Virus record (IMG/VR): IMGVR_UViG_3300028886_000045
Origin: a virus
Taxonomy: Duplodnaviria > Caudoviricetes
Direction: 5' to 3' (one strand)
Length of the DNA: 64,000 nucleotides
Below the pieces are notes generated by a model. The model had not been told where the DNA came from. It saw nothing but the letters and a program-made list of their open reading frames with translations, and searched no databases. Positions 2,868 through 54,290 of this stretch are shown piece by piece; the stretch's first letter is position 1, and every line of letters starts with the position of its first letter. The position numbers and the translations under genes are program-made.

Positions 2868-2893
2868 GGTCTTGTTATTCTCTTGACCGTGAG
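2868..2893 (-). promoter_or_regulatory. Leader pseudoknot copy 1
   Basis: CUC AC GGUC AA GAG AAUAACAA GACC; 9 nt to ATG 2858. Confidence 0.85.
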
Positions 2894-2925
2894 TTCTAAA
2901 TTCTTCTGTTATTTCTTAACTACGA

Positions 2926-2978
2926 TGCAAAGGTACTAAATTATTTTGAACTATGCAAATTTTTTACCAACTTTTTTT
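2926..2978 (-). promoter_or_regulatory. Bacteroidetes sigma-A type promoter (representative of about 25 similar copies)
   Basis: Minus strand AAAAGTTGGTAAAAAATTTGCA (-33 with upstream element) and TACCTTTGCA (-7, TAnnTTTG consensus). Confidence 0.85.
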
Positions 2979-2987
2979 TTGAAAAAA

Positions 2988-3021
2988 ATAAAAAAACGCA
3001 CTATCCATCACGGACGGTGCG
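2988..3021 (-). terminator. Intrinsic terminator after the lysis cassette
   Basis: cgcac...tccatcacgga...gtgcg hairpin with A-run on the + strand. Confidence 0.65.
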
Positions 3022-3052
3022 CAAAACTATTAAAAAAATATGAAGACTTAAA

Positions 3053-3583
3053 TCAAAAATACTTAAATTTAATATATAAAATGACAAATAAAATAACCAA
3101 TGCTAATATTGCGTGCCAATAGGTGAAACCGAAAACGCCCTTTTCCGTGACTTTCTTTTCCTTTACACTTGTAGCCTTTGTAACGGAATCATTCTTTACC
3201 ACGCTTGTATTATTATAATGTGACACGCTATCCGCTTTCTGAACGCTTGTATATCCCACATTCTGTATGTTGTCCGTTCTTCTGCTAACGTGCCTTTCCT
3301 TTATCTTTTCCCTTATTCGCAACGTGTCCCCCTTATCGTTAAGAACAACCTCCACAGTTCGGTCATTGATAACTGAGTCCAATGCTTGCAAATCCCTTTC
3401 CGTTCTTTCCACCTTATCGGTCTTTTCTTCGTGAAAGTCTTTCTTTTCATTTTCCGTTGCTGTTGTTTCTGTCTTTACCTCTGTTTCCGTTACCGACTTT
3501 TCGATTTCGCTATGCGTCTTGCACCCAATCAGCAAAACCGCCACCGATAGAAGAAACACCAAACTTTTCATTACCCTTTTCAT
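3053..3583 (-). CDS. Unimolecular spanin-like lipoprotein
   Basis: N-terminal lipobox (VLLIG/C), hydrophilic middle, C-terminal TM helix (FTYWHAILALVILFVILY); last gene of the lysis cassette; start placed at the second Met. Confidence 0.7.
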   Translation of the reverse strand: MKRVMKSLVFLLSVAVLLIGCKTHSEIEKSVTETEVKTETTATENEKKDFHEEKTDKVERTERDLQALDSVINDRTVEVVLNDKGDTLRIREKIKERHVSRRTDNIQNVGYTSVQKADSVSHYNNTSVVKNDSVTKATSVKEKKVTEKGVFGFTYWHAILALVILFVILYIKFKYF

Positions 3584-3584
3584 A

Positions 3585-6058: not shown

Positions 6059-6718
6059 TCAAGAAACGTAATCGGCAAAGTTATCCGCAGCCTTCAAAGC
6101 CTCCGCCCTTGTTTCAATTATCTTTGTACCCCTCATTCTGAATGGCACGACTTCAACAATTCCATTTTTCAATGTATCATTAAAACTCCATGCGTCATCA
6201 TCTTTGTCATATTCTTTTAGCACTTTTATAAGTGCCTTACGGAATGACTTATTATTACAGTACATTACTTTCGTCTTTTCGGTTTCGTGCCCAATATCAA
6301 AAAGCATATCGCCTACACCGAAACCCATGCACGCACGGTGTGAAAAGCCGTAATACTTTAGGGTTTTAGTATTGAAAACGACTTGTGGATGACCTACAAC
6401 CTTACGCCACCCCTCGCCAACCAATATCCAAGGCATATCCTCAATGTGGTAACTGCTTCCGTCTGCTATCACAACCAACTTTTCAAATTGGCTATTCCAA
6501 CCGAATATACCACATAACTTATTCTTTCCGTATTCGGAAAAGCCGTTTACATAACGCTTTCTTACCGAAAAGTACACGTTACCAAACAACTTCCAAGCCT
6601 TGATACACATATCCTTACCGCCTGCACATCCCCTTATGTAATAAGGATAGCCGTTTTCTAACTTGACATAAGCCTCGCCATTAAAGCATTTAATCTTACT
6701 TAAAAGGTCTTTTATCAT
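6059..6718 (-). CDS. Hypothetical phage protein
   Basis: 219 aa ORF in operon context, KYYGFSHRACMGFGVGD motif. Confidence 0.7.
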   Translation of the reverse strand: MIKDLLSKIKCFNGEAYVKLENGYPYYIRGCAGGKDMCIKAWKLFGNVYFSVRKRYVNGFSEYGKNKLCGIFGWNSQFEKLVVIADGSSYHIEDMPWILVGEGWRKVVGHPQVVFNTKTLKYYGFSHRACMGFGVGDMLFDIGHETEKTKVMYCNNKSFRKALIKVLKEYDKDDDAWSFNDTLKNGIVEVVPFRMRGTKIIETRAEALKAADNFADYVS

Positions 6719-10526: not shown

Positions 10527-10877
10527 TTAGTCTCCATTCTGACTATTGACGAAACTATAAAGTCCATCCAAGTCACGGCTTGCATACTTCTTTTGTAAAG
10601 CCTCGACTATGCCACCAAAGCAATCCTTTAGGCTTTTCATATATTCGCGTCCATTATGATTTGTCCAATTTTCGCGATACCATTTGCCTTGATAGTTTCC
10701 GACCGTGAACGCATCACCGCCAAAAGCATCCACCATATAGTCGGCATAGAACCAATCACAATCCTTGCATTCTCTGATTTTTACAATGTTGAAAATACCG
10801 CGCTTTTTAAGCACCACGCTTACACTATTTGCAAAACTCTTGAATGATTCGTAGTCATTTACGATGATATACCCCAT
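10527..10877 (-). CDS. Hypothetical protein (paralog of 10998-11360)
   Basis: Shared MVDAFGGDA..VG..QGKWY.EN segment; own promoter and leader. Confidence 0.8.
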   Translation of the reverse strand: MGYIIVNDYESFKSFANSVSVVLKKRGIFNIVKIRECKDCDWFYADYMVDAFGGDAFTVGNYQGKWYRENWTNHNGREYMKSLKDCFGGIVEALQKKYASRDLDGLYSFVNSQNGD

Positions 10878-10885: not shown

Positions 10886-10911
10886 GGCTTTGTTATTCTC
10901 TTAGCCGTGAG
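10886..10911 (-). promoter_or_regulatory. Leader pseudoknot copy 2
   Basis: CUC AC GGCU AA GAG AAUAACAA AGCC; 8 nt to ATG. Confidence 0.85.
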
Positions 10912-10997: not shown

Positions 10998-11360
10998 TTA
11001 GTCTTCATTCTGACTATTGATAAAGTCGCAAAGTTCTTGTGTGTTGCGCACTTTGAATAGTTCTACCAAAGCATCTGAAACGCCATCAAAGCACTCCTCG
11101 AAACTATCCTTAAACTCGCGTTCTGTGCCTTTCGTGAAATTCTCACAATACCATTTGCCTTGCAAGCAACCTACCATATAAGCATCACCGCCAAAGGCAT
11201 CCACCATGAAACTTGCAAGAAACCAATCAAAATCCGCGTAATTGCGTGTCTTTACCATGTTGAAAACACCTTGCTTATTAAGCAACTTGCTAATAAGTGA
11301 TACGCTACACTTGAAATCCTCATAGTTTTCAACAGCCATATTCAAACCATTCAAATCCAT
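10998..11360 (-). CDS. Hypothetical protein (paralog of 10527-10877)
   Basis: Tandem duplicate with its own promoter and leader. Confidence 0.8.
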   Translation of the reverse strand: MDLNGLNMAVENYEDFKCSVSLISKLLNKQGVFNMVKTRNYADFDWFLASFMVDAFGGDAYMVGCLQGKWYCENFTKGTEREFKDSFEECFDGVSDALVELFKVRNTQELCDFINSQNED

Positions 11361-11369: not shown

Positions 11370-11395
11370 GACCTTGTTATCCTCTCGGTCGTGAG
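11370..11395 (-). promoter_or_regulatory. Leader pseudoknot copy 3
   Basis: CUC AC GACC GA GAG GAUAACAA GGUC; 9 nt to ATG. Confidence 0.85.
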
Positions 11396-11561: not shown

Positions 11562-11867
11562 TTACTTTGCGCTCATTATATCCACAAACATCTTTGCAAG
11601 TTGCTTGTTTACTTCGTCAATCACCTCCTTTACGGCTGTGTACTGACCGCCCAATCTTTCAAGTGCCTTTTCAGCCTTTGCAACGTCTTCCAAGTTCTGT
11701 GCGAATAATTGCGCACCGCTTTCTACCAAAAGGTAACGCTTTTTCAGTTGCGCCAACTCCTTTTTAAGATACTTTACGTTAAGCATCTTACCTTCTTCTT
11801 TCATGAGGTTTTCGTAGAATGACTTCTTTTCGTTGTAGTACTCATTCTTGTATTCTCTAATCTTCAT
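11562..11867 (-). CDS. Coiled-coil hypothetical protein
   Basis: 101 aa; ATG 9 nt after the leader. Confidence 0.75.
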   Translation of the reverse strand: MKIREYKNEYYNEKKSFYENLMKEEGKMLNVKYLKKELAQLKKRYLLVESGAQLFAQNLEDVAKAEKALERLGGQYTAVKEVIDEVNKQLAKMFVDIMSAK

Positions 11868-11876: not shown

Positions 11877-11902
11877 GGCTTTGTTATTCTCTTAGCCGTG
11901 AG
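11877..11902 (-). promoter_or_regulatory. Leader pseudoknot copy 4
   Basis: CUC AC GGCU AA GAG AAUAACAA AGCC; 9 nt to ATG. Confidence 0.85.
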
Positions 11903-12039: not shown

Positions 12040-12993
12040 CTACAAACGCTTGAAACTTTCTATTTCTTCGTCTGTCATACCGAAATGCAAACCAAGCATT
12101 TCTATCTTATCATCCAACTCGCCCAACGCTTTCTTTCCAAAGTTTCGCAATTTCAAGAAATCCGTCTTATTATGTCTTACAACATCTTCTATTGTGTTGG
12201 CATCCGCATAATTAAGGCAATTCAGAACCCTAACGGAAAAGTTCATTTCCCTAACCCTTGTTTTCAGTAGTTGCACCTTTTCTATGTCATAGCCACTTAT
12301 AGCATATTCTGCCCTTGCGTTTTCGATTTTGACTTTATCCCCACGCTTTGCCAACTTTACCTTTTCACGCAACTCGTACTCGCAAAGCCTTTTCGCCAAC
12401 TTCTTTTGGTTCAGTTCCAAGGTGTGTATATGTTCCCTTTGTAGGATTGTCTTTCTTTTCAGTTCTTCACAACGCCTTTCCGTTTCTTGCAGTTCGCTAA
12501 TACGCTTTGATGCTTTCCGCAAAGTCTTAGCCAACCGAACCGTCATTAGTTGTCGTGATAGCCTCTGCAAACGCCTTGGGTTGTAGGTCTTTTGTGACGA
12601 AAAGAATTGTATCATCAAATCCATATAGTCATCATCAACCTTTATCCCCATGCCACTTATCACACTCATTAGGTCTTTCATCGCAGTCAGATAATAACCG
12701 CCCTTATCCCCCATAATCGCACGTTGCACCGACTGAATTTGTGCGTGATATTCATGGAGTTTCCGTGTTAGTTCTTCTCTGCTTTCCGCTATTGCATTAT
12801 CAAGTGTCGCAACCTCTTCGACCTTTGGCAGATTATCAAACATGGTTTCTTTGTCTATATACACCATGTTCCCAATCCGCTTTGTCTTGAAATAGCCCTT
12901 TTCTACATAGTTGGAAACCGTTTGGACTGAAACCCCCAATATATCCGCTACTTGCTTACGCCCTATATATGTAGCATTAATTGTTTTTGCCAT
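12040..12993 (-). CDS. HTH (excisionase/MerR-like) - coiled coil - RNA polymerase alpha C-terminal domain fusion
   Basis: N-term RKQVADILGVSVQTVSNYVEKG; C-term LLKTRVREMNFSVRVLNCL...FLKLRNFGKKALGEL...LGLHFGM; likely start MAKT at 12993. Confidence 0.85.
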   Translation of the reverse strand: MAKTINATYIGRKQVADILGVSVQTVSNYVEKGYFKTKRIGNMVYIDKETMFDNLPKVEEVATLDNAIAESREELTRKLHEYHAQIQSVQRAIMGDKGGYYLTAMKDLMSVISGMGIKVDDDYMDLMIQFFSSQKTYNPRRLQRLSRQLMTVRLAKTLRKASKRISELQETERRCEELKRKTILQREHIHTLELNQKKLAKRLCEYELREKVKLAKRGDKVKIENARAEYAISGYDIEKVQLLKTRVREMNFSVRVLNCLNYADANTIEDVVRHNKTDFLKLRNFGKKALGELDDKIEMLGLHFGMTDEEIESFKRL

Positions 12994-13797
12994 TCTTTCG
13001 CTTCTTTTTCCTTGCAAGGCGTTTCCGTTCATTGTAACGCGCACGCTCTTCGCTCGTCATGCTATCGTACCTTTCCTTTGCCTTGCGCTTGATTTCTTCT
13101 TTGTTCCTTTCGTAACGCCTTTTGTTATACGCCTTACGCTCCTCCTCCGACATAGCGGAATATGTAGCGTTTCCGTCATACCCCTTTTCCTTCTGCTTTA
13201 GATACACGGCATGACGATACAACCTTTTTTCCGTTGCTGACTTATTCGCCCTTCTTTCACGCGCCTTTTCCAACAACCTTTCCCTATTGGCTTCGTAGTA
13301 AGCCTTATTTAACTCCTTACGGTTTTTTTTCTGTTTCTGTGTCATTCTTTATCTGATTTTCCAACATCAGACGCAAAGCGGAAATATCGCTTTCCAACTC
13401 CGCGACCCTTTGCCGATTGTAACTTAAACTTGTTTGCTTTCCGCGTATCAAACGCCTTATCGCTTGCACTTTCTGCTTTTGGTCTTGGTTCATTATTCCT
13501 ATACCGAACCTTACACCATTTTCTTTTTCTGTTATCATATCTTAATTCTTAAAAGGTGGAACATCATTAACTATCGGTTTCTGTCGGCAAAATCCGCAAA
13601 GTCCCTTAGATAGTATTCACGCATTTTTTCCCCATGCTTCAACGCTATCCATTTTTTAGCAACCGCTAATGTTTCTTTACGCATATCTGCCAACAGACTC
13701 CTTACGTTGCTTGTGTGCACATAATAATCGCTATCTTTAGCATAGGTGCTTATCTCGTCCAAAGATTCAGCAACCTCTTCGATTCTGTTGTCTATGT

Positions 13798-14115
13798 TCA
13801 TGCCATATCCTTATAAACCATTCTAATCCAACACTTGACGATGACCTCGTTATGCTTGAAAACAGACTCCTTCTCTTGCTTGCTTAGATGGTATTCAACA
13901 AATTTGATTTCCTTAAAATCAATGTTTGTCGCAACCAAGACGAAAGCACCGTCTGAATTGCGGATGTAAAGGTTCGTTTCGCTGTTTGAATTACGGCTAA
14001 TGCAATGCAACTTGAAACATAAGTTTCCGTACTTATAGATGTGTGAAGCACTACCTTCGCGGTCTGAACACTTTACTACGCTGTAAATTGTTTCTACATC
14101 CTTCCAATTCTTCAT
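13798..14115 (-). CDS. Hypothetical protein (start revised to 14115)
   Basis: ATG 9 nt downstream of leader copy 5. Confidence 0.7.
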   Translation of the reverse strand: MKNWKDVETIYSVVKCSDREGSASHIYKYGNLCFKLHCISRNSNSETNLYIRNSDGAFVLVATNIDFKEIKFVEYHLSKQEKESVFKHNEVIVKCWIRMVYKDMA

Positions 14116-14124: not shown

Positions 14125-14150
14125 GGTCTTTATATCCCCTTGACCGTGGG
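14125..14150 (-). promoter_or_regulatory. Leader pseudoknot copy 5
   Basis: CCC AC GGUC AA GGG GAUAUAAA GACC; 9 nt to ATG 14115. Confidence 0.85.
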
Positions 14151-19954: not shown

Positions 19955-21508
19955 TTAACTCAATCTACTGTTTATGTCATTTATAGCAGTAGCAGAAACC
20001 TTTTCGTTATCTTCCACCGTCTTCTGAACATCGCCCAAAGCCGTTGCAGTTACCAACTCATTGTTTTCTATGTTCTTTTGAACATCGCCCAAAGCCGTAG
20101 CAGTTACCAATTCGTTATTCTCGATTTCCTTTCTGACATTGCCAAAGGCTGTTGCGACCACCTTTTCGCTATCTTCAATTTCCTTACGCATATTACCGAA
20201 AGCAGTAGCCACTACTAACTCGTTATTCTCAATATCCTTTCCGATATTACCTATTGCCGTAGCAGTTACCAACTCGTCTTCTTCAATATCCTTACGGATG
20301 TTACCCAAAGCCGTTGCAACTACCAACTCATTGCTTTCGATTTCCTTACGCATATTGCCGAATGCAGTTGCTACAACCAACTCGTTTCTTTCGATTTCTT
20401 TTCGTAGGTTGTTGATAGCCGTAGCAGTAACGATTTCATTTTGCTCCATGTTGTTCCTAAGTGTTGCCACCGTCTGAGCCAATTCATTGATAATCGTTGC
20501 CAAATGCTTTACGTTCTGACTACTTACGTTTGTACCATCATAGCCACCCAAACCTAAAATGTAGGCATAGCCTTCAGTTGTGACCTCAACAGCATTCTTT
20601 CTGTTATTTTCGGTTGTACCTATACCAACAGAAAACAAGGTCTTGTTTTGAACGGAAACATTGTACTTACCACAGGCGTGCTCTGCATTATTCGTAGTAT
20701 ATGTGTACAAACCTTCAGCGTGCGAATACTGACCTGACGCATGAGTTCGGAAACCTTCTGTATGGGAACAATTACCATAAGCACAAAGACTAACGTAAAC
20801 CGTACCGCCCACTTCTAAACTTTCATCTATGCCTTCACTAAGTAACAGCCTATAATCACCCTCGTTTTCTTGGAAAACACATTGTAATACTTCAACAACG
20901 GTGTTATCGGTCTTGTAAACAAGACTTCGCGCAAGTATTGGGCTGTTCACATAAATTACTGTCCCCCCCTCTGTATAAGCGCGTGTTGCTTGGATTTCAT
21001 ATTCCAAATTTCCACCTTCTGCGTGCGAATTTGTTCCATAACTCACCGTGCCTTGCCCCTCTGTATGTGAAATTTCTCCATATGCTATCGTACCGCCACC
21101 TTCTGCGTGGCTTTGTTCGCCATATGCTGTATTTCCCACACCCTCCACATGGGTACAATCGCCTAATGCTAAATTCCTTTGACCTTGTGCCAACGAATTT
21201 AACCCCGATGCTGTATTTGTCGCATTTCTACCCTTTGCAAAGAAAGCGAATCCGTTGTTTTCACTAACTTCTATCGGTTTGTTTCCCAATTCGTTGTATT
21301 CCGTAATCCCATAAAGGTGACCGTGCGTCCAAATCTGCCCCGTGCTCTTAATGAATACGACTTGTTGGTAAAGCACATCAGGCGTACCATTCGTGACTTC
21401 ACCGCTAAGTCCCAAAGTGTACGAGGTATTGCTGTCATTGGCAGACATTTTCTTGTTTGCCAACGTAGCAATATCCGCAACGTGTATCTTCTTTTTTATT
21501 CTTGACAT
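19955..21508 (-). CDS. Fibre/adhesin with YadA-head-like SHAEG repeats and C-terminal 18-aa coiled-coil repeats
   Basis: 14-aa A.G..SH[AT]EG repeats, LFSVGIG...RKNAVEV neck, about 9 NELVVATA.GN.RK.IE repeats. Confidence 0.8.
   Translation of the reverse strand: MSRIKKKIHVADIATLANKKMSANDSNTSYTLGLSGEVTNGTPDVLYQQVVFIKSTGQIWTHGHLYGITEYNELGNKPIEVSENNGFAFFAKGRNATNTASGLNSLAQGQRNLALGDCTHVEGVGNTAYGEQSHAEGGGTIAYGEISHTEGQGTVSYGTNSHAEGGNLEYEIQATRAYTEGGTVIYVNSPILARSLVYKTDNTVVEVLQCVFQENEGDYRLLLSEGIDESLEVGGTVYVSLCAYGNCSHTEGFRTHASGQYSHAEGLYTYTTNNAEHACGKYNVSVQNKTLFSVGIGTTENNRKNAVEVTTEGYAYILGLGGYDGTNVSSQNVKHLATIINELAQTVATLRNNMEQNEIVTATAINNLRKEIERNELVVATAFGNMRKEIESNELVVATALGNIRKDIEEDELVTATAIGNIGKDIENNELVVATAFGNMRKEIEDSEKVVATAFGNVRKEIENNELVTATALGDVQKNIENNELVTATALGDVQKTVEDNEKVSATAINDINSRLS
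19975..20450 (-). repeat. 54-bp coding tandem repeat (about 9 degenerate units)
   Basis: Repeated gcagttaccaactc / ccaaagccgt units encoding the 18-aa repeat. Confidence 0.85.
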
Positions 21509-23045: not shown

Positions 23046-23174
23046 ATGACTTATTTTTGCTTAAACAATAAATTACTTCTGATTTGCAAAGTTAAGCCAT
23101 ATTACGCACTTACACAAATAAATACATACGGATTACTTCACTTTGTTTCTAATGATAACTTAGGAATATACGCA

Positions 23175-23210: not shown

Positions 23211-23264
23211 ATGTTAAACCTGTTAAACTAATTATAATGCTGAAATATTCTTGCTCTGATATTG

Positions 23265-23335
23265 TTGTCCCAAAAGGACTCGAACCTTTTCAAACAGAAC
23301 CAAAACCTGTTGTGCTACCATTACACCATAGGACA
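23265..23335 (-). tRNA. tRNA-Gln(TTG)
   Basis: TGTCCTA/TGGGACA acceptor, ACAGG-TTTTGGT-TCTGT anticodon arm, GGTTCGAGTCC T arm; no encoded CCA. Confidence 0.92.
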
Positions 23336-23455: not shown

Positions 23456-23631
23456 TTGGGGATGCCTCCACTATTAGGTTTCGGCTTTTTGGCTGTAATT
23501 CGCACCCCCTTTCCGTGCGAAGGTTTTATAGTCTTTTACCTTGACCAACTCGCGATTTTTAAGTCTTATCTGACCTTGAACACCGCCAACCATCCGAAGG
23601 GAAATCCGAAAGATAATCGGCTATCGTGTTG

Positions 23632-23712
23632 TACCCAAAAAGGGACTCGAACCCTTACGCTTTTCAGCATCGGTGTTTGAGACCGACTCGGCTACCATTA
23701 CGACATTTGGGT
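23632..23712 (-). tRNA. tRNA-Leu(CAA)
   Basis: ACCCAAA/TTTGGGT acceptor, TCGGT-CTCAAAC-ACCGA, long variable arm, GGTTCGAGTCC. Confidence 0.9.
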
Positions 23713-24239: not shown

Positions 24240-24265
24240 GACCTTGTTATTCTCTCGGTCGTGAG
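24240..24265 (-). promoter_or_regulatory. Leader pseudoknot copy 6
   Basis: CUC AC GACC GA GAG AAUAACAA GGUC. Confidence 0.85.
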
Positions 24266-26705: not shown

Positions 26706-26731
26706 GACCTTTTTATTCACTTGGTCGTGTG
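26706..26731 (-). promoter_or_regulatory. Leader pseudoknot copy 7
   Basis: CAC AC GACC AA GUG AAUAAAAA GGUC; 8 nt to ATG 26697. Confidence 0.85.
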
Positions 26732-33691: not shown

Positions 33692-34311
33692 ATCCTTACC
33701 CTTTGTTAGCGATGTTTATAAAGTTGTTATCCACAGCCACCCACATACGACACCATTTGAAAATCGAAAGATTACCCTTTGAATCCAAAGCCAAACGCAA
33801 ACTTTCATTTCTTACGTTTGTGTGTACCCAAATGTGGCATAACTTACCATCTGTCATTTTAGACACTATATCCGCTTTCACAGAAAAGTCTATCCCCTTT
33901 TCCTTTTTGCAGACTTCTATCATTCTTTCCACAGCCTCATCAAAATTTGGCGCGATTACATAGTCTATCTTTTTCATATCCTTTCGCTTTTAAGGGTTAA
34001 ACAAGGTCAAAGCGACCAACCTTAACTTTGTAGTGGTCTATAACAGCCGTAACCGACATCATAGCATCATGCGTTCTCCAAGCCAAATCATTGAAAGAAT
34101 TTGTCAAAGCCCTATACTTGTCTTCCAAGTCGTGATAAAACTCTACAACTTCGTTGCGAACTCTGCAAAGGTTCTCACCATTCTTGCCTTCCAAGCCTAA
34201 GTACCTTGCTATCATAGCAATTTCTTCGTCACTTGTAAAACGCTCGTTCATTGGTTCGTAACCCTTTAGGAAAATTTTCTGTTCTCTTGAAAGTCCTACC
34301 ATAATTATTGT

Positions 34312-34337
34312 GGTCTTGTTATCCCCTTGACCTTGGG
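34312..34337 (-). promoter_or_regulatory. Leader pseudoknot copy 8
   Basis: CCC AA GGUC AA GGG GAUAACAA GACC; 9 nt to ATG 34302. Confidence 0.8.
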
Positions 34338-34469: not shown

Positions 34470-35074
34470 CGCTATAATCCCCCTACGTTCCTATGTGCCG
34501 ACACAAAAACGCACAAACGAAAACAACCCACCACGAAACGTAGTAGGTTGCATTCTATCTTATGGCATTTATACTAACTTATCTTTGCCCACACATCACC
34601 GCTACCAATCAGATAACGCTTGATGTTCTGTAACTGCTGAACGCTGAATATCAAAGGTTCTTTGCCCTCATCCACGCGCTTGTAGTCGTTTTCCATTTCC
34701 CATAGTGGTGACAGACTACCAAAAAGCCTTCTTGCTTTCACAATAGGTATTGCAACACACAATTTCAGTTTAAGATACTTGCTTGTTAAAAGTATCATCG
34801 TAAGTTCATTCTCCATATCCTTGCAGTCTTAAAGGTATTACTTAGCCATATACACGCTTTTGGGTATTGGCTTCCAAGCGAATGCGCTATGAAAACCGCA
34901 ATCGTTAAGTTTCTTACCCTCATGGTTCTCGATATTCTTAACATACCTTCTCCAAGTGTTTTCTACGAACTTGTACATCTGTGGATGGCGTTGCCAAGAA
35001 TTTGAGTTGATAAGCCACTCTTGTATTCTGTTTCTTTGTTCTGTAAGTCTCTTGATGCACTTCATAAAAATTGT

Positions 35075-35100
35075 GGTCTTGTTATGCCCTCGACCGTGGG
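35075..35100 (-). promoter_or_regulatory. Leader pseudoknot copy 9
   Basis: CCC AC GGUC GA GGG CAUAACAA GACC; 9 nt to ATG 35065. Confidence 0.85.
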
Positions 35101-36426: not shown

Positions 36427-36744
36427 ATTCTATATATAAATCTATTTTTCTATTCTATTTTTTCAGAGAGGAGAAACGTGCGCCCCTTTCTGTGTTTTGC
36501 AACAAACATCTACGAATAGAATGTTTTACACATCAAGAAAGCACACGTCTATAAATAGATTTTATATAGAAAATGCCTTTTTATTATCCGTAAATGTTTG
36601 TTGCGGTGCAAAGATACAAAACATTTCGGATATATGCAAATGTTTTACCAACTTTTTTGTGAAGAGAAAGGACGCGCACACCATAGGCATACGCGCCCCT
36701 ATCATCACAACTTTGCTAAGAATCAAAAGAATATGAAAACATTG

Positions 36745-36816
36745 TGACTACGCTCAGAATCGAACTGAGATTTACTCTTTAGGAGAGAGTCGTTCTATCC
36801 ATTGAACTACACAGCC
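36745..36816 (-). tRNA. tRNA-Arg(CCT)
   Basis: GGCTGTG/CGTAGTC acceptor, ACTCT-CTCCTAA-AGAGT, CTCAG-TTCGATT-CTGAG. Confidence 0.92.
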
Positions 36817-39388: not shown

Positions 39389-39703
39389 ATTTTGATTTGC
39401 TTGTTATTAGTTTGTTTATGTGCCACTTGGTTTTATCGACCTACATATTGAATTTGACCTCCAAGGTAACAAGTTTTTCTATGCCGTTACGCTTACAAGT
39501 CTTTTCTAAAGCCTTTGTCATAGACACAACCTCATCCCATGTCCTTATATGCAATTCAACGCGAAACATATCTTTCTCGCTACTGATAGGCGCAATCTTA
39601 CCTTTATACTCAGTACGATTGTTGATATACTTGCATATCACTTCGATAGCGTTATCTCTATCCTTTGCCTTTGTGTAGTACGTTATGTATAACATATTGC
39701 CGT

Positions 39704-39729
39704 GGCTTTGTTATCCTCTCAGCCGTGAG
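39704..39729 (-). promoter_or_regulatory. Leader pseudoknot copy 10
   Basis: CUC AC GGCU GA GAG GAUAACAA AGCC; 8 nt to ATG 39695. Confidence 0.85.
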
Positions 39730-40340: not shown

Positions 40341-40643
40341 TTAAATCTTTCCGACTGCATGACCGAAAGCAAGTGCAAAGGTAGGATAGAAACCGTTGTC
40401 ATATCCATTTTCAACCTTGAAAGTTGCGAAAAACTTCAAGTTGTTGCTTGGATAGGTAGAAACCGAACCCATGCAAACATCATTCTTATCAAAGAAGATG
40501 TAGCGGTTTTCTTCTTTCTTGATTTTCAAACCCATTTTTTGCGCTTCTGCTACTGCATAACGCTTGTTAATAGCGCATACTGACCCTTCCTTTGAGAAAT
40601 CAGCGTTAAAGCAATTTTCGTGTACTGAATAAGCCTTTACCAT
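40341..40643 (-). CDS. Hypothetical protein (start revised to 40643)
   Basis: ATG 9 nt after leader copy 11. Confidence 0.7.
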   Translation of the reverse strand: MVKAYSVHENCFNADFSKEGSVCAINKRYAVAEAQKMGLKIKKEENRYIFFDKNDVCMGSVSTYPSNNLKFFATFKVENGYDNGFYPTFALAFGHAVGKI

Positions 40644-40652: not shown

Positions 40653-40678
40653 GACCTTGTTATCCACTTGGTCGTGTG
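40653..40678 (-). promoter_or_regulatory. Leader pseudoknot copy 11 (intercistronic, no promoter)
   Basis: CAC AC GACC AA GUG GAUAACAA GGUC; 7 nt after the upstream stop. Confidence 0.85.
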
Positions 40679-41027
40679 GTCTAAATTAAAGTTTTTTTGA
40701 ACATTCGAGGGCGTGTTCAATCATTTTCTCTACCCTTCTGCTTACACCGAAAGATTTCTCCTTCAGATAAACACCGATGATGTTGTCCCTTTCGGTTTCT
40801 GACCAAAAGCCTTGACAAAACCAACCACCAAGGAGTTTCTCATCATGGACTTCGCCACCCCCACGATGACCATTAAAACGCCTTATCTGCTTATGCTGAC
40901 AATCAATCTCAGCAATAGCCTCATCTAATGTCAAACCTTCTGCGATTACATAGTCTTTAAGCATTTCACCATTCTCGCAAAGAAATTCTACTACTGAATA
41001 ATTATTGCCGATATTCATATCTTTTAT

Positions 41028-41053
41028 GGTCTTTTTATCCCCTTGACCGTGGG
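41028..41053 (-). promoter_or_regulatory. Leader pseudoknot copy 12 (intercistronic, no promoter)
   Basis: CCC AC GGUC AA GGG GAUAAAAA GACC; 9 nt to ATG 41018. Confidence 0.85.
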
Positions 41054-41059: not shown

Positions 41060-41335
41060 TTAGATTTCTTCATCGCTGAAAGCCTCAGTCATACAAGTTA
41101 ATTTGTATTCAAAGCCATTACCCTTGATAATCACCTCATGGCAACCGCTCATGTCGTACTTATCAGTATCAACGATTTCTACCTCTTCGTCTAAAAGTGA
41201 AACTAACTTTTCAACAGAGATACCCCAAAAATCCCAAAAACCACTCATTTGTGTTTCTTCGATTATCTCGTTTTCTTCACTTACACCACACAACCAAGAA
41301 AGGTAGTTTCTGAAAGTGCTCTTGATTGATTTCAT
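41060..41335 (-). CDS. Acidic hypothetical protein (duplicate of 50350-50625)
   Basis: MKSIKST.RNYLSW...GFWDFWGISVEKLVSLL. Confidence 0.8.
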   Translation of the reverse strand: MKSIKSTFRNYLSWLCGVSEENEIIEETQMSGFWDFWGISVEKLVSLLDEEVEIVDTDKYDMSGCHEVIIKGNGFEYKLTCMTEAFSDEEI

Positions 41336-41344: not shown

Positions 41345-41370
41345 GACCTTGTTATTCTCTCGGTCGTGAG
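41345..41370 (-). promoter_or_regulatory. Leader pseudoknot copy 13
   Basis: CUC AC GACC GA GAG AAUAACAA GGUC. Confidence 0.85.
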
Positions 41371-41534
41371 TTCTAAATTAACTTTGTTTCTTAATTACAA
41401 TGCAAAGGTACTGCTTTTTCTTGAAATATGCAAATTTTTCACCAACTTTTTTCTGCTTTTGTTGAAATTTTAACATTTCACCCCCATAAATAGCAAAAAA
41501 GATGCCCACAAACCTTGTGAGCACCTTATATATA

Positions 41535-42713: not shown

Positions 42714-42965
42714 TTAATTGTATCTTAAAATGGCTTCTCCTTCTGCCTTGCGAGGACGAACATACAACTTCTGAACAGCAACTTTTGCCATACCTAAATT
42801 ATACTCATAATTCATATCCTTTAAGTGTTCTAACCATTGGATGCCGTACTTCTTCTTATCGCTTTCCCTACGCTTTTCAAACCAAGCGTTAGCCTCTGCC
42901 TCAGACTTGAAAGACTTGTAACTGCTTGACATTCTGTAAGTGTTGAAAATAACGATTTTATACAT
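42714..42965 (-). CDS. Hypothetical protein (start revised to 42965)
   Basis: ATG 9 nt after leader copy 14. Confidence 0.7.
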   Translation of the reverse strand: MYKIVIFNTYRMSSSYKSFKSEAEANAWFEKRRESDKKKYGIQWLEHLKDMNYEYNLGMAKVAVQKLYVRPRKAEGEAILRYN

Positions 42966-42974: not shown

Positions 42975-43000
42975 GACCTTGTTATCCTCTCGGTCGTGAG
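42975..43000 (-). promoter_or_regulatory. Leader pseudoknot copy 14
   Basis: CUC AC GACC GA GAG GAUAACAA GGUC. Confidence 0.85.
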
Positions 43001-43132: not shown

Positions 43133-43564
43133 CACAACACCCCCACTACGTTCCTATACCCCACAGACGCAAAAAGGACGGTCTGCACCGCCCTCCTTGG
43201 TTCTGAAATCAATCTTAATGCCTAAAAGAAAAAGTACCTTATATTTCCAATTTTTCCATAGTGGTGACAATCTTTTTTTCTGCATCGTAGATAACGACAT
43301 TCATTTTGGCATAGTTTACCAAAGTATCAAAGTTGTCATTCCACATAACTCCTACCCTTCCGATTTTGTGTCCCTCGTGGCGTGTTTCGCAATCAATAAG
43401 GTAACACATCCATTTCTTGAATACTTCCAAATCTTCGTCACAAACCCTATACGAATCTGCAAGCGATATAATGACTAAGTGGTTAGGGTATTTCTGCTTT
43501 AGGGTCTTGTAAACCTTTATTGTGCCCTCCTTGAAAGTCTTATTTAGATGTACCATAATATTGC

Positions 43565-43590
43565 AACCTTTTTTTGCCCTTGGTCGTGGG
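43565..43590 (-). promoter_or_regulatory. Leader pseudoknot copy 15 (no adjacent promoter)
   Basis: CCC AC GACC AA GGG CAAAAAAA GGUU (one G-U); 8 nt to ATG 43556. Confidence 0.75.
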
Positions 43591-44012: not shown

Positions 44013-44327
44013 TTACAAACCCTTCTTGTAAGGCTCGTTTCTAACGTAGATGTCACGCTCTACTGAAAGTCCGAATGAGCCTTTGATAGACTGCAACTCT
44101 GATAGGGTGAAATAACCCATTTCGCTACCCATCTCGTTCTCAACCATACCGAAGAAAGTCCAATCACCGTTCTCCATTTTCTCAGCCTCGAAAACGTACC
44201 AAGTCCAACTTGACCAAGGGGTGAAGAACTTAACAATCACCTTCTTGTCCTTCTGTCCGTCTGTTGAATAAAGAGGTGCTTTCAACAAATCCTTCTCAAC
44301 CTGCTTTGTAACTAACTTCTGCTTCAT
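44013..44327 (-). CDS. DUF2958-like protein
   Basis: VKFFTPWSSWTWY..E...FFGMV....EMGYFTLSEL..I.G..GL.VERD. Confidence 0.8.
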   Translation of the reverse strand: MKQKLVTKQVEKDLLKAPLYSTDGQKDKKVIVKFFTPWSSWTWYVFEAEKMENGDWTFFGMVENEMGSEMGYFTLSELQSIKGSFGLSVERDIYVRNEPYKKGL

Positions 44328-44336: not shown

Positions 44337-44362
44337 GACCTTGTTATTCTCTTGGTCGTGAG
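44337..44362 (-). promoter_or_regulatory. Leader pseudoknot copy 16
   Basis: CUC AC GACC AA GAG AAUAACAA GGUC. Confidence 0.85.
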
Positions 44363-46386: not shown

Positions 46387-47490
46387 ACGTGTTTATATCC
46401 AACACCGTTGCACCGACAAACACGTTACGCCTACAACCATAGACACCCTTAATCTGTGATTCTTGCAAGTGCCTACAATCAAAGCAACGGCTTTCCCCTT
46501 TGCCTTTTTCCATACGCTAATTTTTCTTGATTTTCTTCTTTAGCGTACCGATTTCATTTTGCAGTTTCTTTAACTGCATTTCCTTTTCCGCTAACTCCCT
46601 TTCGTCTTGATGATAACGCCTTACTTCTTCGCCTATCAAACGATATAGACGCAAAGCCTTTTGTGGAGTATCTTCCATCACCTCCCTTTCTGTGCACAAA
46701 CCATTCGAGTTATTATAACAAATGGTCAAATCCTTTGGCAAAGTTGAAAGATACTTGATTGCATCGGCTACTGACACCCCTACAATCTCATCCATATCCA
46801 AGTCTTTGCTTACCGTTACTTTCCGTGTCAAAAAAGGATAAGCATCATTTTCAAGTGAGCGGTCAAATATCTCTTCAAAATTAGGCTCATCCGAAAAATA
46901 TTGCTCTTTCAGATACTTCCTAACTGCTTCTATGCCTTCTATTTCTACTTTCTTTGCCATATCCTAATCGAATTTGTCTAAACATTTCTTGCAGTCGATT
47001 TTGTGCTCGAAAGGCTTGTTTCCGTAAAACACATATTCGTGTCCGTCATACACCTCGGTATGGAAACCGCGCAAACCATCGTATGCAACGTAAGCGATAC
47101 CAAGCATTAACACACTTAGCACGACTGCCAACAATATCTTTTCTTGCTTCATATTCATTTCAAGTCCCTACAATATACCATTAACTCGTCCAACCCAAAA
47201 AACGCAAACAATCTAACCAAATCATTCTTGTTTTCTATTGGGCATTTTACCGACCGATACTCATCCATCCTATAAGATGAGCCAACGTGCGACTCTACAA
47301 AGACTTTATCCATATACTGAATAAAGTAAAAGTAATGCCCACAATAAGGCTTTCCAAGCATTGTCTTTTCCCCCTTGCGTGACCTTTCAATATACCAAAA
47401 GTCGTATAATCTGCATAAAGACTTTACCTTTTCTATCCAAAGGTGTTGCTCTGCCTCTTGTTTTATTCTTTCATTATCCATAATGGATAT

Positions 47491-47516
47491 GACTTTTTTA
47501 TCCTCTTAGTCGTGAG
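47491..47516 (-). promoter_or_regulatory. Leader pseudoknot copy 17
   Basis: CUC AC GACU AA GAG GAUAAAAA AGUC; 9 nt to ATG 47481. Confidence 0.85.
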
Positions 47517-50131: not shown

Positions 50132-50308
50132 TCATTTGTTTAGTTTATTTTCTTCATCTTCTATCATCTTTGCAACCTCTTCACAAAGACTATCTATCTT
50201 TTTACGCAATTCTGCCAAATCGCTATGTGCCACCGTTTTGGCACTTGCTACACAAAGACTTGTATAAATCTTTCCAAGCATCATTGCCTTGTGTTCTTGT
50301 CTTGTCAT
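50132..50308 (-). CDS. 58-aa protein missed by the ORF track
   Basis: MTRQEHKAMMLGKIY...ENKLNK*; predicted by leader copy 18; stop overlaps the next ATG (ATGA). Confidence 0.75.
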   Translation of the reverse strand: MTRQEHKAMMLGKIYTSLCVASAKTVAHSDLAELRKKIDSLCEEVAKMIEDEENKLNK

Positions 50309-50317: not shown

Positions 50318-50343
50318 GGTCTTTATATCCCCTTGACCGTGGG
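50318..50343 (-). promoter_or_regulatory. Leader pseudoknot copy 18 (intercistronic, no promoter)
   Basis: CCC AC GGUC AA GGG GAUAUAAA GACC. Confidence 0.85.
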
Positions 50344-50349: not shown

Positions 50350-50625
50350 TTAGATTTCTTCATTACTGAAAGCCTCAACCATTTCTGATAAAACGAACTC
50401 GAAGCCGTTACCCTTGATGATAACCTCATGGCTACCGTCCATATCGTAATTATCAGTAATAACGATTTCAACCTCTTCATTCAAAAGTGAAACCAACTTT
50501 TCTACTGAGATACCCCAAAAATCCCAAAAACCGTACATTTGGATTTCTTCAACTATCTCGTTGTCGCTTTCTACGCCACAATACCAAGAAAGGTAGTTTC
50601 TTAAAGTGCTCTTGATTGATTTCAT
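50350..50625 (-). CDS. Acidic hypothetical protein (duplicate of 41060-41335)
   Basis: Same length (91 aa), colinear and highly similar. Confidence 0.8.
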   Translation of the reverse strand: MKSIKSTLRNYLSWYCGVESDNEIVEEIQMYGFWDFWGISVEKLVSLLNEEVEIVITDNYDMDGSHEVIIKGNGFEFVLSEMVEAFSNEEI

Positions 50626-50634
50626 ATTCTTTGT

Positions 50635-50660
50635 GACCTTGTTATTCTCTCGGTCGTGAG
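50635..50660 (-). promoter_or_regulatory. Leader pseudoknot copy 19
   Basis: CUC AC GACC GA GAG AAUAACAA GGUC. Confidence 0.85.
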
Positions 50661-50772
50661 TTTTATTTGTTTAATACCTTTGTTTCTTAATCACAATGCA
50701 AAGGTACGAATATTTTTTGAACTTTGCAAATTTTTTGCCAACTTTTTTCATAAAAATACCAACTTTTACCAA

Positions 50773-50796
50773 TTTTGTAATGTGTAGATAGCAAAA
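50773..50796. promoter_or_regulatory. 24-bp palindromic upstream site
   Basis: ttttgtaat gtgtag atagcaaaa, 48 bp from the -33 box. Confidence 0.7.
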
Positions 50797-52179
50797 TAAA
50801 GGGATAATGCAAAAGCACCACCCCTTTTAATGTTTTTCTTCTCCCATCAACACTATCCTCTTATTAAAGTTATCCAACCAATAGTTTACAACAGAATACC
50901 CACCCATACACCCATTCCTATTAAACAAGCGCACCTCTAATGGATATTGCGGATGGCTTTCACACAACTCCTTCAGCCGTTTTGTGTAGAAATCGCTTTC
51001 GTTCCTTTCTTTCGGCTTTATGTATTCTGCAATAGAAGCGTAAACGAATATCACGTCTTCATATATTTTGAATCTGTCACACCTACCGAATGCCAACCAA
51101 CTTATATAAAGGGTCAAAGGGCGCGTTACCACCCCCATAAAGGAACATACGCACATTAAGGGAAACCCCACAATGTAGTACAATGACAACAGAAATCTTC
51201 TTAATACGTTCATGCCTACTTTATTCTGAAACTTGATTTTGAAAAGCCTACGGAATCACGCATATCATAATACGCACTAACCTCCCTTTTGCGATTTGCA
51301 AAAAGTCTATTATCCCTAAACCAAGGGTCTTGCCACGTTTTAGAACTATGGCTAAAATCGCACAGACAATACAAACCGCTACGCCTTGACCCTTTGTTAG
51401 CGTATGGCTTTCTGTGTTCTTTTCCGCTTTCTATCGCCTTGAATAACATTTTGAATCCCCCCAAAGTCTAATGCACAACTATCCCCTATTATCCGCACAT
51501 CTTTCCGCTTCCAATTTTTCATATCGTCTTTGTGCGTCCTTCATCGCGGAATCATACCCACACCTATATCCTATAAGTATGCCTACGAGAACGGCAATCA
51601 TACCGCTCATAACACCCAAAATTAAATATGCTACTGCCATTTTACCAACCTCCTAATTGTTTTATGAATTTATCTACCTTTTCGCACAATGCAACCTCGC
51701 ATTGACTGAATGGACATACTACCTTACAGAAAGCCTCTTGCGCTTTCCATTTATCTATCTTTTCTTGGTCTTGCGCACCTTTCTTGTAGGCTTCCAACAC
51801 AGACGAAACCCCATAGTCTTGTGAACTGTCTGCAAGTGCCACGTTGTACTTTTCGCTTTCTGCCCTATCCTTGATAGGAACATTCATATCCTTTCTTGTT
51901 ATCTTATCCATATCAACGCCTCTAATTTTTCCTTGAACGCCCTATAACTTGCGCACGTCCCCCTTTCCGCACATTCGGCAATTCTATCAATTATTGGGCA
52001 TTCAGCCAAACAATGCGCTTTAAGTGCCTTTTCCATTGCGTCCTTTGCACACTTTTCGTACCCTTGCACATAGGCTTCACGTTTCTTTATCTGCAAATCC
52101 ATCAAAGTGGTGTTTATATCCACTTCTGCATCTGCACCGATAATAGGGTATTTTTCCCTCGCATTCTGTTTTGCTAACT

Positions 52180-52608
52180 TTAGCATACACTATCGTATTT
52201 CGTACCTATCACTTCCAACGAATCGGTACAATGTTGGTATTCTGAAATATTAAACGCACCGCCTTTGAACTGAACCTCCAAATCTTCGTAATTTTCCTCC
52301 CATTCCGTTCCACACAAAGGTTTTTTCTGACCCATTGAAATCCTTACAATATCCCCTTCAAAGATTTTTCTTTTGTTCTTATCGCACAACCCTGTGAACT
52401 GCCCCACCGTGTCTGAATCTACGAGGTGTATCAAGTCAAACCCCTCGCCATTGGCTGTATATCCGCTAACGTGTATCATATCACCGCCCATCTTATTCTT
52501 AACAAGGCTACCATACACGAAAGTACCGCTCGGAACATCATAGCCACCATCCCATCGCTTTAGACTATCAAATATCGTCTTTCCGCGAAATTCTATCGTT
52601 CTATTCAT
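52180..52608 (-). CDS. YopX family protein
   Basis: IEFRGK...VYGSL...TVGQFTGLCDKN.RKIFEGDIV...LEVIG. Confidence 0.85.
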   Translation of the reverse strand: MNRTIEFRGKTIFDSLKRWDGGYDVPSGTFVYGSLVKNKMGGDMIHVSGYTANGEGFDLIHLVDSDTVGQFTGLCDKNKRKIFEGDIVRISMGQKKPLCGTEWEENYEDLEVQFKGGAFNISEYQHCTDSLEVIGTKYDSVC

Positions 52609-54264
52609 TTTCTTCTTCTTCTGCATCTTCAAACCAATCCAACAAAGTACCCGCGTCTTCGTTTCCGTCTTCGCGGTGCATTTGCTTGATAGTTTCAACA
52701 TCTACTTCGTCAAATTCAATCGAGGGCATATATTTGAATGAAGGTATGTATATCTTACCACAATCATATTCACCCACCGACATCCCATCTGTTGCACTTG
52801 CTATTGCTTCTAATAGCCTTTCACAAAGCAAACGGATATTTTTCTGTTTGTCTGACTGCTTTTCCATATCTACATTAAATAACTAAGGCGTTCTATCGTT
52901 TCCGAATCCACCCAATCATTAAATTTCCTACAACTTGTTTGGTGTAACCCCGTAGCCAAACGACCACAACAGCAAAACATACCACATTCATTAGAAAGTT
53001 CGTCAAACACATCTTTGCGTGTCTTGACAAACTCACCCAAATGTTCGCGCTTTAGGACTTCCAACTTTTCCGCTTTCTTCATGTCCATTCTGTGTCAATT
53101 TCAAACTCGGCTACACTATCTATGTAGTCATTTTCACTTCTCGTATAGCCCAAAAATTCACCATTTGCGAAATCCGCGTTTGTGAATGTAGGGGTCTTTC
53201 CGAAATTGTGATATTCGGCAAAACCTTCATCTTCGTGTAATATTTCCAATATCACATCACTTGTTTTTCTGTGTCTGTAATAATTGTAGTTATATACGGA
53301 TTTTGAAGGTATATGCTCGAAATCACGACTTACTATCTTATAGTGTGCCATACACTAACGCTGATGTGACGCGCACCACTCGTTTGCTTGTGTTACAGAC
53401 TTGAAACGCTTATCAATCACCTTTCCGTCTGCTTCCACGCGGAAATCACCCTTTCCCATCTTTACAATAGTAAGGTTATCGTACACCTCACCCTTTGGCT
53501 TGAAAACCGTTGGTGTTACAACTGCCTTTGGCTTCTCTATTGTAGGCAATACAACCGCCTTTGTAGCATTCTTTACATTTGTAGCAACTGACTTGCAGAA
53601 ATCCAAAGCCTCAGCGAGTGCCTTGTCTGCCTTACGCATTTTCTTGTTATTCATATTCTTATCTTTTGTTTTGTTTATTAAATATTGCTTCTATCTTATC
53701 GGCAACCTCTTGCGCTTCTTCTTTTGTACGAAAGTAATTACCTTTTTCATATCGTTTCGTATCAGAAATTCTGTATATGTCAAAATCGTAGTTTATGAAT
53801 ACATAATCATATACCCATACGAACCAATACAAACCGCCCTTTACGGCTCTCCATCTTTTTTCCATATACTTTTGTTTTTGTAAAGAAATCGCAAAGCGTG
53901 GCTCAAAGGTGCTTGGTTTTCACCCCAAACCGCTATGTAGGACTTCAAACCTCGTTTCCCCTTGCGATTTCTGTATTTTCTTTAATCGTTGAATACCAAT
54001 GTTGGCTTTAGTTCTTTGTATGTAAGATGTACCTTACGGCTTGAATACTTTCGGATAACCTTACCAACCACCTCGCCATTCAGCAAAATCTTGGTGTCCT
54101 TAATCCTATATCCTAACTTTAGAACATCGTAAACCTCACAAGGCATTACATTCTTGCTTGCATAGTTGGATTCAAAGCCGTTGAATCTGTTTACCTTATC
54201 TATGCCTTCGCATACATATTGCATTAACGCTTGCTTTACCTTGTTATCTACCATATTTATATAT

Positions 54265-54290
54265 GACCTTGTTATTCTCTCGGTCGTGAG
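54265..54290 (-). promoter_or_regulatory. Leader pseudoknot copy 20
   Basis: CUC AC GACC GA GAG AAUAACAA GGUC; 10 nt to ATG 54254. Confidence 0.85.

Follow-up and report, generated by a model that had tools for sequence, protein, structure and literature searches.

The frameshift pseudoknots of luteovirids, such as that of beet western yellows virus (BWYV), are compact H-type folds, about 26-28 nt long, whose loop 1 measures 2 nt and whose AACAA-type loop lies in the minor groove of stem 1; they sit within coding sequence, downstream of a slippery site. In phage T4, RegA represses about 30 early mRNAs, and the gene 32 product (gp32) acts through a leader pseudoknot (PMC3014915). The Cluster K mycobacteriophages carry the Start-Associated Sequence (SAS) and its extended form (ESAS), a 13-bp linear repeat with a Shine-Dalgarno (SD) core that lies 3-7 bp from the start codon and has no covarying fold (PMC3203893). 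In T4-type phages, Promoter early Stem-Loop (PeSL) cassettes combine an early promoter with a terminator hairpin, are mobile, and flank small orphan genes in variable regions (PMC2839356, PMC4122927). S1-binding pseudoknots, ACA enhancers and the tisB standby pseudoknot all aid ribosome binding without relying on SD pairing (PMC3879156, PMC7708055); ACA motifs enhance SD-independent initiation and are present in the loops of S1-selected pseudoknots (PMC3879156). In the Bacteroidia, A-rich unstructured leaders and adenines at -3 and -6 are known factors in the choice of start codons without SD pairing, and structure close to the start codon lowers translation (PMC6847099). Here we describe a 26-nt element, very probably an RNA pseudoknot and referred to below as the knot, that is found in 20 copies just before start codons in a 64,000-nt stretch (the window) of the tailed phage genome IMGVR_UViG_3300028886_000045.

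The window corresponds to positions 50343-114342, read on the reverse strand, of one virus record of 178,667 bp that is rated 96% complete and in which almost every gene lies on one strand. The initial annotation had supposed a Bacteroidetes-type host, and several features back a host of the Bacteroidota type: the phage has promoters with TTTG at -33 and TAnnTTTG at -7 (consensus as cited in PMC7366714), an SD-like core in only 38 of its 269 other (non-knot) genes, as expected for such a host (PMC6847099, PMC7366714), and a tape-measure protein whose more distant homologues carry the names Prevotella or Bacteroidaceae. The promoters and transcription start sites given below are predictions from sequence. 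The related contigs, among them ENA ERZ27297816 k141_15623, ERZ28633731 scaffold_50, ERZ28613779 scaffold_25 and ERZ28633420 scaffold_50, were read as parts of about 20-27 kb only.

Each knot occupies 26 nt on the minus strand of the window, from its start coordinate s to s+25, and has the layout S1a(3)-2-S2a(4)-2-S1b(3)-8-S2b(4), comprising a 3-bp stem 1 (S1), a 4-bp stem 2 (S2), a 2-nt loop 1, a 2-nt junction and an A-rich loop 3 of 8 nt. On re-reading the minus strand, all 20 copies reported in the initial annotation were found with the coordinates, strand, stems and spacings given there, and both crossing stems are paired in every copy (100% of cells). They are listed here with the types of stem 1 and stem 2, the distance to the ATG, and the gene that follows, together with an example of the hexamer that precedes them.

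2868-2893, minus strand: knot, CUC/GAG and GGUC/GACC; ATG at 9 nt; gene 2580-2858
10886-10911, minus strand: knot, CUC/GAG and GGCU/AGCC; ATG at 8 nt; gene 10527-10877
11370-11395, minus strand: knot, CUC/GAG and GACC/GGUC; ATG at 9 nt; gene 10998-11360
11877-11902, minus strand: knot, CUC/GAG and GGCU/AGCC; ATG at 9 nt; gene 11562-11867
14125-14150, minus strand: knot, CCC/GGG and GGUC/GACC; ATG at 9 nt; gene 13798-14115
24240-24265, minus strand: knot, CUC/GAG and GACC/GGUC; ATG at 9 nt; gene 23916-24230
26706-26731, minus strand: knot, CAC/GUG and GACC/GGUC; ATG at 8 nt; gene 26374-26697
34312-34337, minus strand: knot, CCC/GGG and GGUC/GACC; ATG at 9 nt; gene 33997-34302
35075-35100, minus strand: knot, CCC/GGG and GGUC/GACC; ATG at 9 nt; gene 34838-35065
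39704-39729, minus strand: knot, CUC/GAG and GGCU/AGCC; ATG at 8 nt; gene 39441-39695
40653-40678, minus strand: promoterless knot before the third cistron of a tandem array, CAC/GUG and GACC/GGUC; ATG at 9 nt; gene 40341-40643
41028-41053, minus strand: promoterless knot before the second cistron of the same array, CCC/GGG and GGUC/GACC; ATG at 9 nt; gene 40686-41018
41345-41370, minus strand: knot, CUC/GAG and GACC/GGUC; ATG at 9 nt; gene 41060-41335
42975-43000, minus strand: knot, CUC/GAG and GACC/GGUC; ATG at 9 nt; gene 42714-42965
43565-43590, minus strand: promoterless knot, CCC/GGG and GACC/GGUU (G-U wobble); ATG at 8 nt; gene 43239-43556
44337-44362, minus strand: knot, CUC/GAG and GACC/GGUC; ATG at 9 nt; gene 44013-44327
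47491-47516, minus strand: knot, CUC/GAG and GACU/AGUC; ATG at 9 nt; gene 47155-47481
50318-50343, minus strand: promoterless knot before a second cistron, CCC/GGG and GGUC/GACC; ATG at 9 nt; gene 50132-50308
50635-50660, minus strand: knot, CUC/GAG and GACC/GGUC; ATG at 9 nt; gene 50350-50625, a paralogue of 41060-41335
54265-54290, minus strand: knot, CUC/GAG and GACC/GGUC; ATG at 10 nt; gene 53982-54254
41371-41376, minus strand: semi-conserved UUAGAA hexamer directly 5' of the knot (example); exact in 17 of 28 copies

Stem 1 occurs in the window as CUC/GAG, CCC/GGG and CAC/GUG, and stem 2 as GGUC/GACC, GGCU/AGCC, GACC/GGUC, GACU/AGUC and GACC/GGUU; the ATG follows at 9 nt in 15 of the copies, at 8 nt in four and at 10 nt in one. 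The geometry had been described as invariant, which holds for these 20 copies but not for the genome or its relatives. A whole-genome census, made with a loose pattern that constrains only the non-covarying positions and avoids selection bias, recovered 28 canonical knots, all on the coding strand and none on the opposite strand, plus one evident chance match. With a covariance model built from stem 2 alone, the 28 copies receive 46-71 bits, and the next best match, at 15 bits, is a variant knot (L001:4302-4327, genome position 4302) in which stem 1 is of 4 bp, the junction of 1 nt and loop 3 of 6 nt, with stem 2 intact; it has no promoter, lies 8 nt from an ATG, and brings the genome total to 29. 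A decayed copy (L006:4094-4137, genome position about 154,094) retains the usual promoter and box as well as stem 1 and has lost stem 2, with a 107-aa gene downstream; it is a natural loss-of-structure variant that can be used as a control.

The evidence for the fold lies in the pattern of variation among the copies. In the 28-copy alignment all seven pairs are canonical in every copy, so that 196 of 196 cells are paired, 36 of them with double changes. None of 500 shuffles attains the observed pairing or covariation score, and when the partner columns are slid by 1-3 positions pairing falls to 16-45% (16-50% if the relatives described below are taken in). Compensatory double changes occur in four of the seven pairs, one in stem 1 and three in stem 2: the middle pair of stem 1 is U-A in 19 copies, C-G in six and A-U in three, and the variable pairs of stem 2 alternate between G-C and A-U, between C-G and U-A, and between C-G, U-A and U-G. 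All four stand out in an all-against-all comparison of mutual information, in which columns 8-19, 13-31 and 14-30 take ranks 1-3 and columns 15-29 rank 7. Nine distinct combinations of stem 1 and stem 2 occur, and the two stems therefore assort independently. The changes in stem 2 are transitions only, with G-U intermediates present, which is the path expected for an RNA helix. A descriptor that specifies structure and places no constraint on sequence finds 10 matches in the 129 kb of genome beyond the window, compared with 0-1 in shuffled sequence.

The relatives of the phage provide a second set of copies. Homologues of the 2290-aa tape-measure protein are present in ENA and Logan assemblies at 98, 93, 75 and 73% identity, and the knot is present in the 75% and 73% relatives and in two contigs reached through a tail-fibre-like protein. 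The covariance model identifies 24 knots in these four loci (97 kb, about 21-27 kb each), and a fifth locus, L147, adds six more; all precede start codons, one of which is a GTG at the same spacing. The 24 copies are 100% paired (154 of 154 cells), and their stem 1, which the model does not include, covaries nonetheless (U-A 11, C-G 10, A-U 1). At six of nine orthologous sites stem 1, stem 2 or both have changed relative to the genome described here, always with full compensation, and one orthologue has a 6-nt loop 3. The structure-only descriptor finds 32 matches per 118 kb in the close relatives, and in distant sets one per 101 kb and three per 988 kb, which is the shuffle level.

We note that the copies are a mixture of paralogues and orthologues that may exchange by recombination, and the cell counts therefore overstate the number of independent events. 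Nonetheless the nine stem combinations, the G-U intermediates and the loop-length variants, which retain both stems, argue for repeated selection. The fold is under selection, and on the strength of this covariation in both stems we consider the knot very probably to be a real RNA pseudoknot of the H type, in agreement with the initial annotation; the alignment and covariance model that it had called for recover both the copies and their covariation. Loops of 2, 2 and 8 nt appear sterically plausible by their likeness to solved small pseudoknots. The alignment has invariant loop bases at A10, A17, A22, A24, A27 and A28, and the C of loop 1 varies, being A in three copies and T in two. Taken singly, the stems have mean nearest-neighbour energies of about -2 and about -3 kcal/mol, and a knot of such marginal stability, which in this resembles the smallest aptamers, may depend on Mg2+, on tertiary contacts made by the invariant adenines, or on a partner.

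Several other accounts of the conserved columns were rejected. Neither stem can be lengthened, as the flanking columns are unpaired, and a third helix between UUA of the upstream hexamer and UAA of loop 3 is broken by variant copies and has zero mutual information. No conserved competing nested fold recurs in a 104-nt context. An explanation by coding sequence fails because the variation tracks base pairs and not codons, and because the hexamer and loop 3 hold stop triplets.

The knot is restricted to a narrow clade. A wider spread in phage and host genomes, raised for checking in the initial annotation, was not borne out: in IMG/VR (scanned with two patterns), in JGI metagenomes and in GTDB species genomes, pattern searches yielded isolated chance matches only, with stems unpaired or no start codon. 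With the covariance model there were no matches in four tape-measure relatives (18-52% of the query aligned, 37-56% identity) or in 63 loci from helicase relatives in IMG/VR (41-58% identity), and a search of IMG/VR with the tape-measure protein itself gave no relative. A relaxed structure-only scan of the distant relatives for any small knot 7-12 nt before an ATG yielded no clear enrichment; a single recurring site is common to three near-identical helicase loci, and the others stay at shuffle level. As for catalogued RNAs, Rfam 15 reports only three tRNAs in the window at the gathering score, and at E<=10 nothing at the knot on the RNA strand, with one query of 4.9 kb and two of 96 nt. The suggestion that the knot belongs to no named family thus stands, and the failure to match even with the 96-nt queries indicates that it is neither a preQ1-I element nor another catalogued motif.

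The position of the knot within its transcripts is informative with regard to its role. In the associated promoters CA follows a TAnnTTTG box, TTTG stands some 20 nt before the box (-33), and a conserved GTTGG block lies farther out; they so contain both elements of the Bacteroidota primary-sigma promoter (TAnnTTTG at -7 and TTTG at -33; PMC7366714). The features concerned are these.

41401-41410, minus strand: -7 promoter box, TAnnTTTG plus CA (example); precedes 23 of the 29 copies
2926, 10936, 11429, 11935, 14183, 24297, 26763, 34370, 35130, 39756, 41401, 43033, 44394, 47549, 50697 and 54322, minus strand: starts of the 16 -7 boxes before knots in the window
41384-41400, minus strand: conserved box at about +1, GTAATTAAGAAAC type, between promoter and knot (example); found at 31 promoters in the genome
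2347-2356 (genome 111995), minus strand: second-class promoter of the capsid operon, -7 box without the -33 TTTG
23085-23094 (genome 91249), minus strand: second-class promoter, -7 box without the -33 TTTG

The -7 box plus CA has 71 matches in the genome, about 40 of which also have the -33 TTTG and the upstream GTTGG block. The GTAATTAAGAAAC box lies behind 31 of these roughly 40 first-class promoters, and the knot is present in 23 of the 31 and absent in eight. A second class of 11 sites shares the -7 box, lacks the -33 TTTG, and has another upstream motif of the cattNtgtNNNaaGTGAA type at about -55 to -38; these promoters head the capsid operon, a tail-fibre region and the gene of a 2534-aa protein, and never have the +1 box or the knot. 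The confinement of the knot to one promoter class, and its absence behind the class that serves structural genes, agrees with the proposal that it marks a regulon. We infer from the promoter sequences that the first class is early and used by host RNA polymerase (RNAP) only; the second may be activator-dependent and middle or late, and the knot-led genes are probably early, judging by promoter type alone. Two further observations concern these promoters. The core of the GTAATTAAGAAAC-type box, TAATTA, is palindromic and could be an operator overlapping the start site or a signal at the 5' end of the RNA. A 334-aa protein (12040-13044, minus strand) combines an HTH_17 domain with a C-terminal domain resembling its counterpart in the alpha subunit of RNA polymerase; relatives have one or two genes of this kind, and the protein is a candidate phage transcription factor, acting perhaps on a promoter class or on the GTTGG block.

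The distance from the -7 box to the knot spans 26-38 nt, whereas that from the knot to the start codon is 8-10 nt in every copy, with a spacer that varies in sequence and is constant in length. The position of the knot is set by the start codon and not by the promoter, and the lock to the start codon reported initially is thus seen in all copies. Six copies are promoterless, and at least four of these (genome positions 3662, 64000, 73290 and 73665) stand directly before the second or third cistrons of tandem arrays. A put-like antiterminator was rejected in view of the variable promoter distance and the six copies without promoters.

The 29 proteins encoded downstream are of 58-203 aa and are mostly orphans, with only three paralogous pairs. 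Three match a PHROG family of unknown function, and the Pfam matches are to MutS_I (two proteins), DUF2958, DUF3081 and DUF520 (one each). The two MutS_I proteins bear domain I of MutS only (best E 6.3e-14), as do equivalent genes of 95-97 aa in relatives (L135:20097-20384 and L137:20079-20372), and a stand-alone mismatch-binding domain of this kind is unusual in a phage. One small gene is found together with its knot at different places in two genomes: in this phage it lies in the early array without a promoter of its own (40686-41053, minus strand), and its counterpart in a relative (L135:18724-19106; 50% identity to gene 40686-41018) lies beside tail genes with its own promoter and its own knot. 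Units of gene plus leader therefore seem to move as cassettes.

Counted from the start codon, stem 2 has its 3' strand at about -13 to -10, and other genes of the phage are A-rich at -11 to -14 (0.46-0.61 A). The knot leaders keep an A at -6 in 22 of 29 and at -3 in 16 of 29, and have A at -14 and -15 in 27 of 29; under the rules established for Bacteroidia (PMC6847099, PMC7366714) these retained adenines are positive determinants for the host. A U is present at -1 in 28 of the 29, and ACA or ACAA is found in loop 3 and at the start of the spacer. Between -16 and -5, all 29 leaders lack an SD-like core. The GAGG of stem 1 was considered as a partner of the anti-SD and rejected, as the motif lies about 21-24 nt from the AUG and covaries with the 5' strand of stem 1.

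Taken together, these features suggest that the knot probably acts on translation initiation or on the use of the mRNA of the cistron that follows. How it would do so is a more tentative matter, and the reading to which we lean, while holding it short of probable, is that the 30S subunit recognizes the folded knot during initiation, as a docking site or enhancer. The stacked 7-bp helix would end 8-10 nt before the AUG, where an SD-antiSD duplex would lie, and could dock at the platform or the bS1 side of a Bacteroidia ribosome that is unable to use SD pairing, with the A-rich loop 3 and the ACA-containing spacer providing single-stranded contacts. Docking would place the AUG and give accessory, probably early, messages transcribed by the host RNAP efficient initiation, cistron by cistron. 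In its most specific form, which we regard as rather doubtful, the knot would be a self-contained surrogate of the SD/anti-SD duplex, docking on a 30S subunit whose anti-SD is sequestered and setting the AUG in the P site.

A number of observations weigh against recognition by the 30S subunit. The 3' strand of stem 2 takes the place of the usual A-rich tract at -10 to -13, and structure near the start lowers translation in Bacteroidia (PMC6847099). The capsid operon and tail genes, which are expected to be the most highly expressed, do without the knot and have A-rich unstructured leaders instead, as do the eight of 31 leaders that share the same promoter and +1 box; the knot is therefore no general requirement for good translation. 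The decayed copy, with stem 2 lost, still precedes its 107-aa gene. With separate stems of such marginal stability (about -2 and -3 kcal/mol), the knot may require a partner in order to fold. Finally, a protein partner specific to the clade would account at least equally well for the invariant loop bases and the narrow distribution.

Such a partner is the basis of the strongest rival. A translational repressor or timer, encoded or induced by the phage and specific to its clade, would have the folded knot as its operator next to the AUG and would shut off or delay translation of the roughly 29 accessory genes. The regulon-like distribution behind one promoter class only, the unrelated small orphan genes that it precedes, its absence from the genes expected to be most highly expressed, and the precedents of RegA and gp32 (PMC3014915) all favor an operator, while the invariant loop bases suggest sequence-specific recognition, the marginal stability suits stabilization by a binding partner, and a narrow clade is expected of a site that co-evolves with a phage protein. 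However, a domain search of the phage genome found no S21, S1, ProQ, cold-shock domain (CSD) or KH (KH_1), although a novel fold is possible; RegA (PF01818) had no match either, nor did it have one in the control genomes, and we take these negatives as weak evidence either way. A repressor site would also have no need of the strict 8-10-nt spacing or of the retained adenines at -3, -6 and -14/-15. We consider an operator rather unlikely, though nearly as likely as reading by the 30S subunit, which is slightly preferred because the strict spacing survives changes in loop length and spacer sequence, because the knot is used cistron by cistron, and because the positive determinants are retained.

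Less probable by a good measure is that the knot is a module for mRNA processing or stability, a signal for cleavage or protection of the RNase P, RNase E/G or RegB kind, that divides polycistronic transcripts into cistrons or sets the half-life of the messages. Knots do lie at cistron boundaries in the tandem arrays, small structured elements at gene boundaries are common in the early regions of phages, and the ACA or ACC after the 3' strand of stem 2 might be seen as faintly like a tRNA acceptor end. But the knot is locked to the downstream AUG rather than to the upstream stop codon or to the 5' end of the transcript (about 26-38 nt past the -7 box), no tRNA-like or processing-signal model in Rfam matches it, and ARAGORN gives no match at the knot; we therefore regard this module as improbable.

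A riboswitch-like aptamer of preQ1-I topology, gating the translation of the set in response to a small molecule, would explain the H-type fold with its A-rich loop 3, the length of 26 nt near that of the smallest known aptamers, the invariant loop bases, the marginal stability, and the position immediately upstream of the start codon. This is very unlikely, given that neither RF00522 nor any other riboswitch model matches at E<=10 with the 96-nt queries, that the 29 copies precede unrelated orphan genes with no metabolic theme, and that the C of loop 1 is variable (A in three copies, T in two). Equally remote is an absence of RNA function, with the knot either part of a mobile, PeSL-like promoter-leader cassette kept alike by recombination or gene conversion or else a protein site in the DNA, for while knot and gene have relocated together in a relative, duplicated cassette pairs exist and a limited set of stem variants recurs, gene conversion alone fails to explain complete pairing in 348 of 348 cells over nine stem combinations, the G-U intermediates or the variants in loop length that retain both stems, one dimeric protein presumably cannot have as its DNA site two inverted repeats that interleave and come with several different half-sites, and all copies are on the coding strand.

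The selection of start codons without SD pairing in the Bacteroidia is only partly understood, and the knot sits exactly at the position of an SD duplex, with some 29 genes at once carrying a tiny structured element under strong selection. Whether a docking helix or an operator, it would offer those who study or engineer translation in Bacteroidota of the gut and rumen a handle that is compact, mutable and portable, and if an SD-surrogate helix is confirmed it would represent a new mode of bacterial start-site selection, giving phage early messages privileged initiation. Its 26-nt size and its natural variants (nine stem combinations, loop-length variants and the decayed copy) simplify compensatory-mutation work. 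The knot is in addition a marker of a co-regulated, probably early, set of genes in an uncultured phage, and a clean new RNA family for the catalogues.

Other features of the window deserve mention. A 219-aa protein (6059-6718, minus strand) matches Tad6, an inhibitor of type I Thoeris (E 1.8e-13), and is likely an anti-defence gene product. A 517-aa protein (19955-21508, minus strand), whose relatives bear repeats of the YadA-head type, varies strongly between related phages, with 36-89% identity, and is likely a receptor-binding fibre. A gene of the TnpB / IS605 OrfB type lies within the phage (59342-60535, minus strand), with HTH_OrfB_IS605, OrfB_IS605 and Cas12f1-like TNB domains. The three tRNA genes, all on the minus strand (23264-23335, 23631-23712 and 36744-36816), are Gln-UUG, Leu-CAA and Arg-CCU, and the Gln tRNA resembles tRNAs of crAss-like and Lak phages.

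Comparison with described systems places the knot among several of them. It resembles the luteovirid frameshift pseudoknots in size, in its 2-nt loop 1 and in its AACAA-type loop, but is intergenic, stands before a start codon and has a shorter stem 1. S1-binding and tisB-type pseudoknots, by contrast, come from Escherichia coli and Salmonella, from in vitro selection or single genes, and the standby knot lies far upstream of the ribosome-binding site. With preQ1-I (RF00522) the knot shares an H-type fold of very small size, a short stem 2, an A-rich loop 3 and a place directly before a regulated start codon; it differs in the lack of an RF00522 match, in a stem 1 of 3 rather than 5 bp, in its multiple copies, and in that the knot-led genes, whose 29 proteins are mostly orphans, have no link to queuosine or to preQ1 transport or synthesis. 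Like the PeSL cassettes, it is a conserved regulatory unit at small orphan genes, subject to modular shuffling, and relocation is likewise seen for the knot; its structure, however, is a pseudoknot with an A-rich spacer and no U-tract, placed between promoter and start codon and locked to the latter.

The T4 systems are alike in exerting phage-wide control at the initiation regions of many early messages, and the gene 32 operator is itself a 5'-leader pseudoknot of the H type, small and coaxially stacked, with an A/U-rich stretch after it. RegA sites, though, are unstructured and AU-rich, and the gene 32 pseudoknot serves autoregulation and occurs once, 67 nt ahead of its own gene, whereas here 29 copies lie 8-10 nt before unrelated genes. 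The functionally nearest published element is the SAS of the Cluster K mycobacteriophages. The two are unrelated in sequence, and the knot differs in having no SD-like core (0 of 29), a covarying fold, and a distance of 8-10 nt from the start; both are nonetheless short elements in one orientation that lie a few bases before the start codons of numerous unrelated non-structural genes, are conserved within a cluster of phages and have been proposed to take part in translation initiation.

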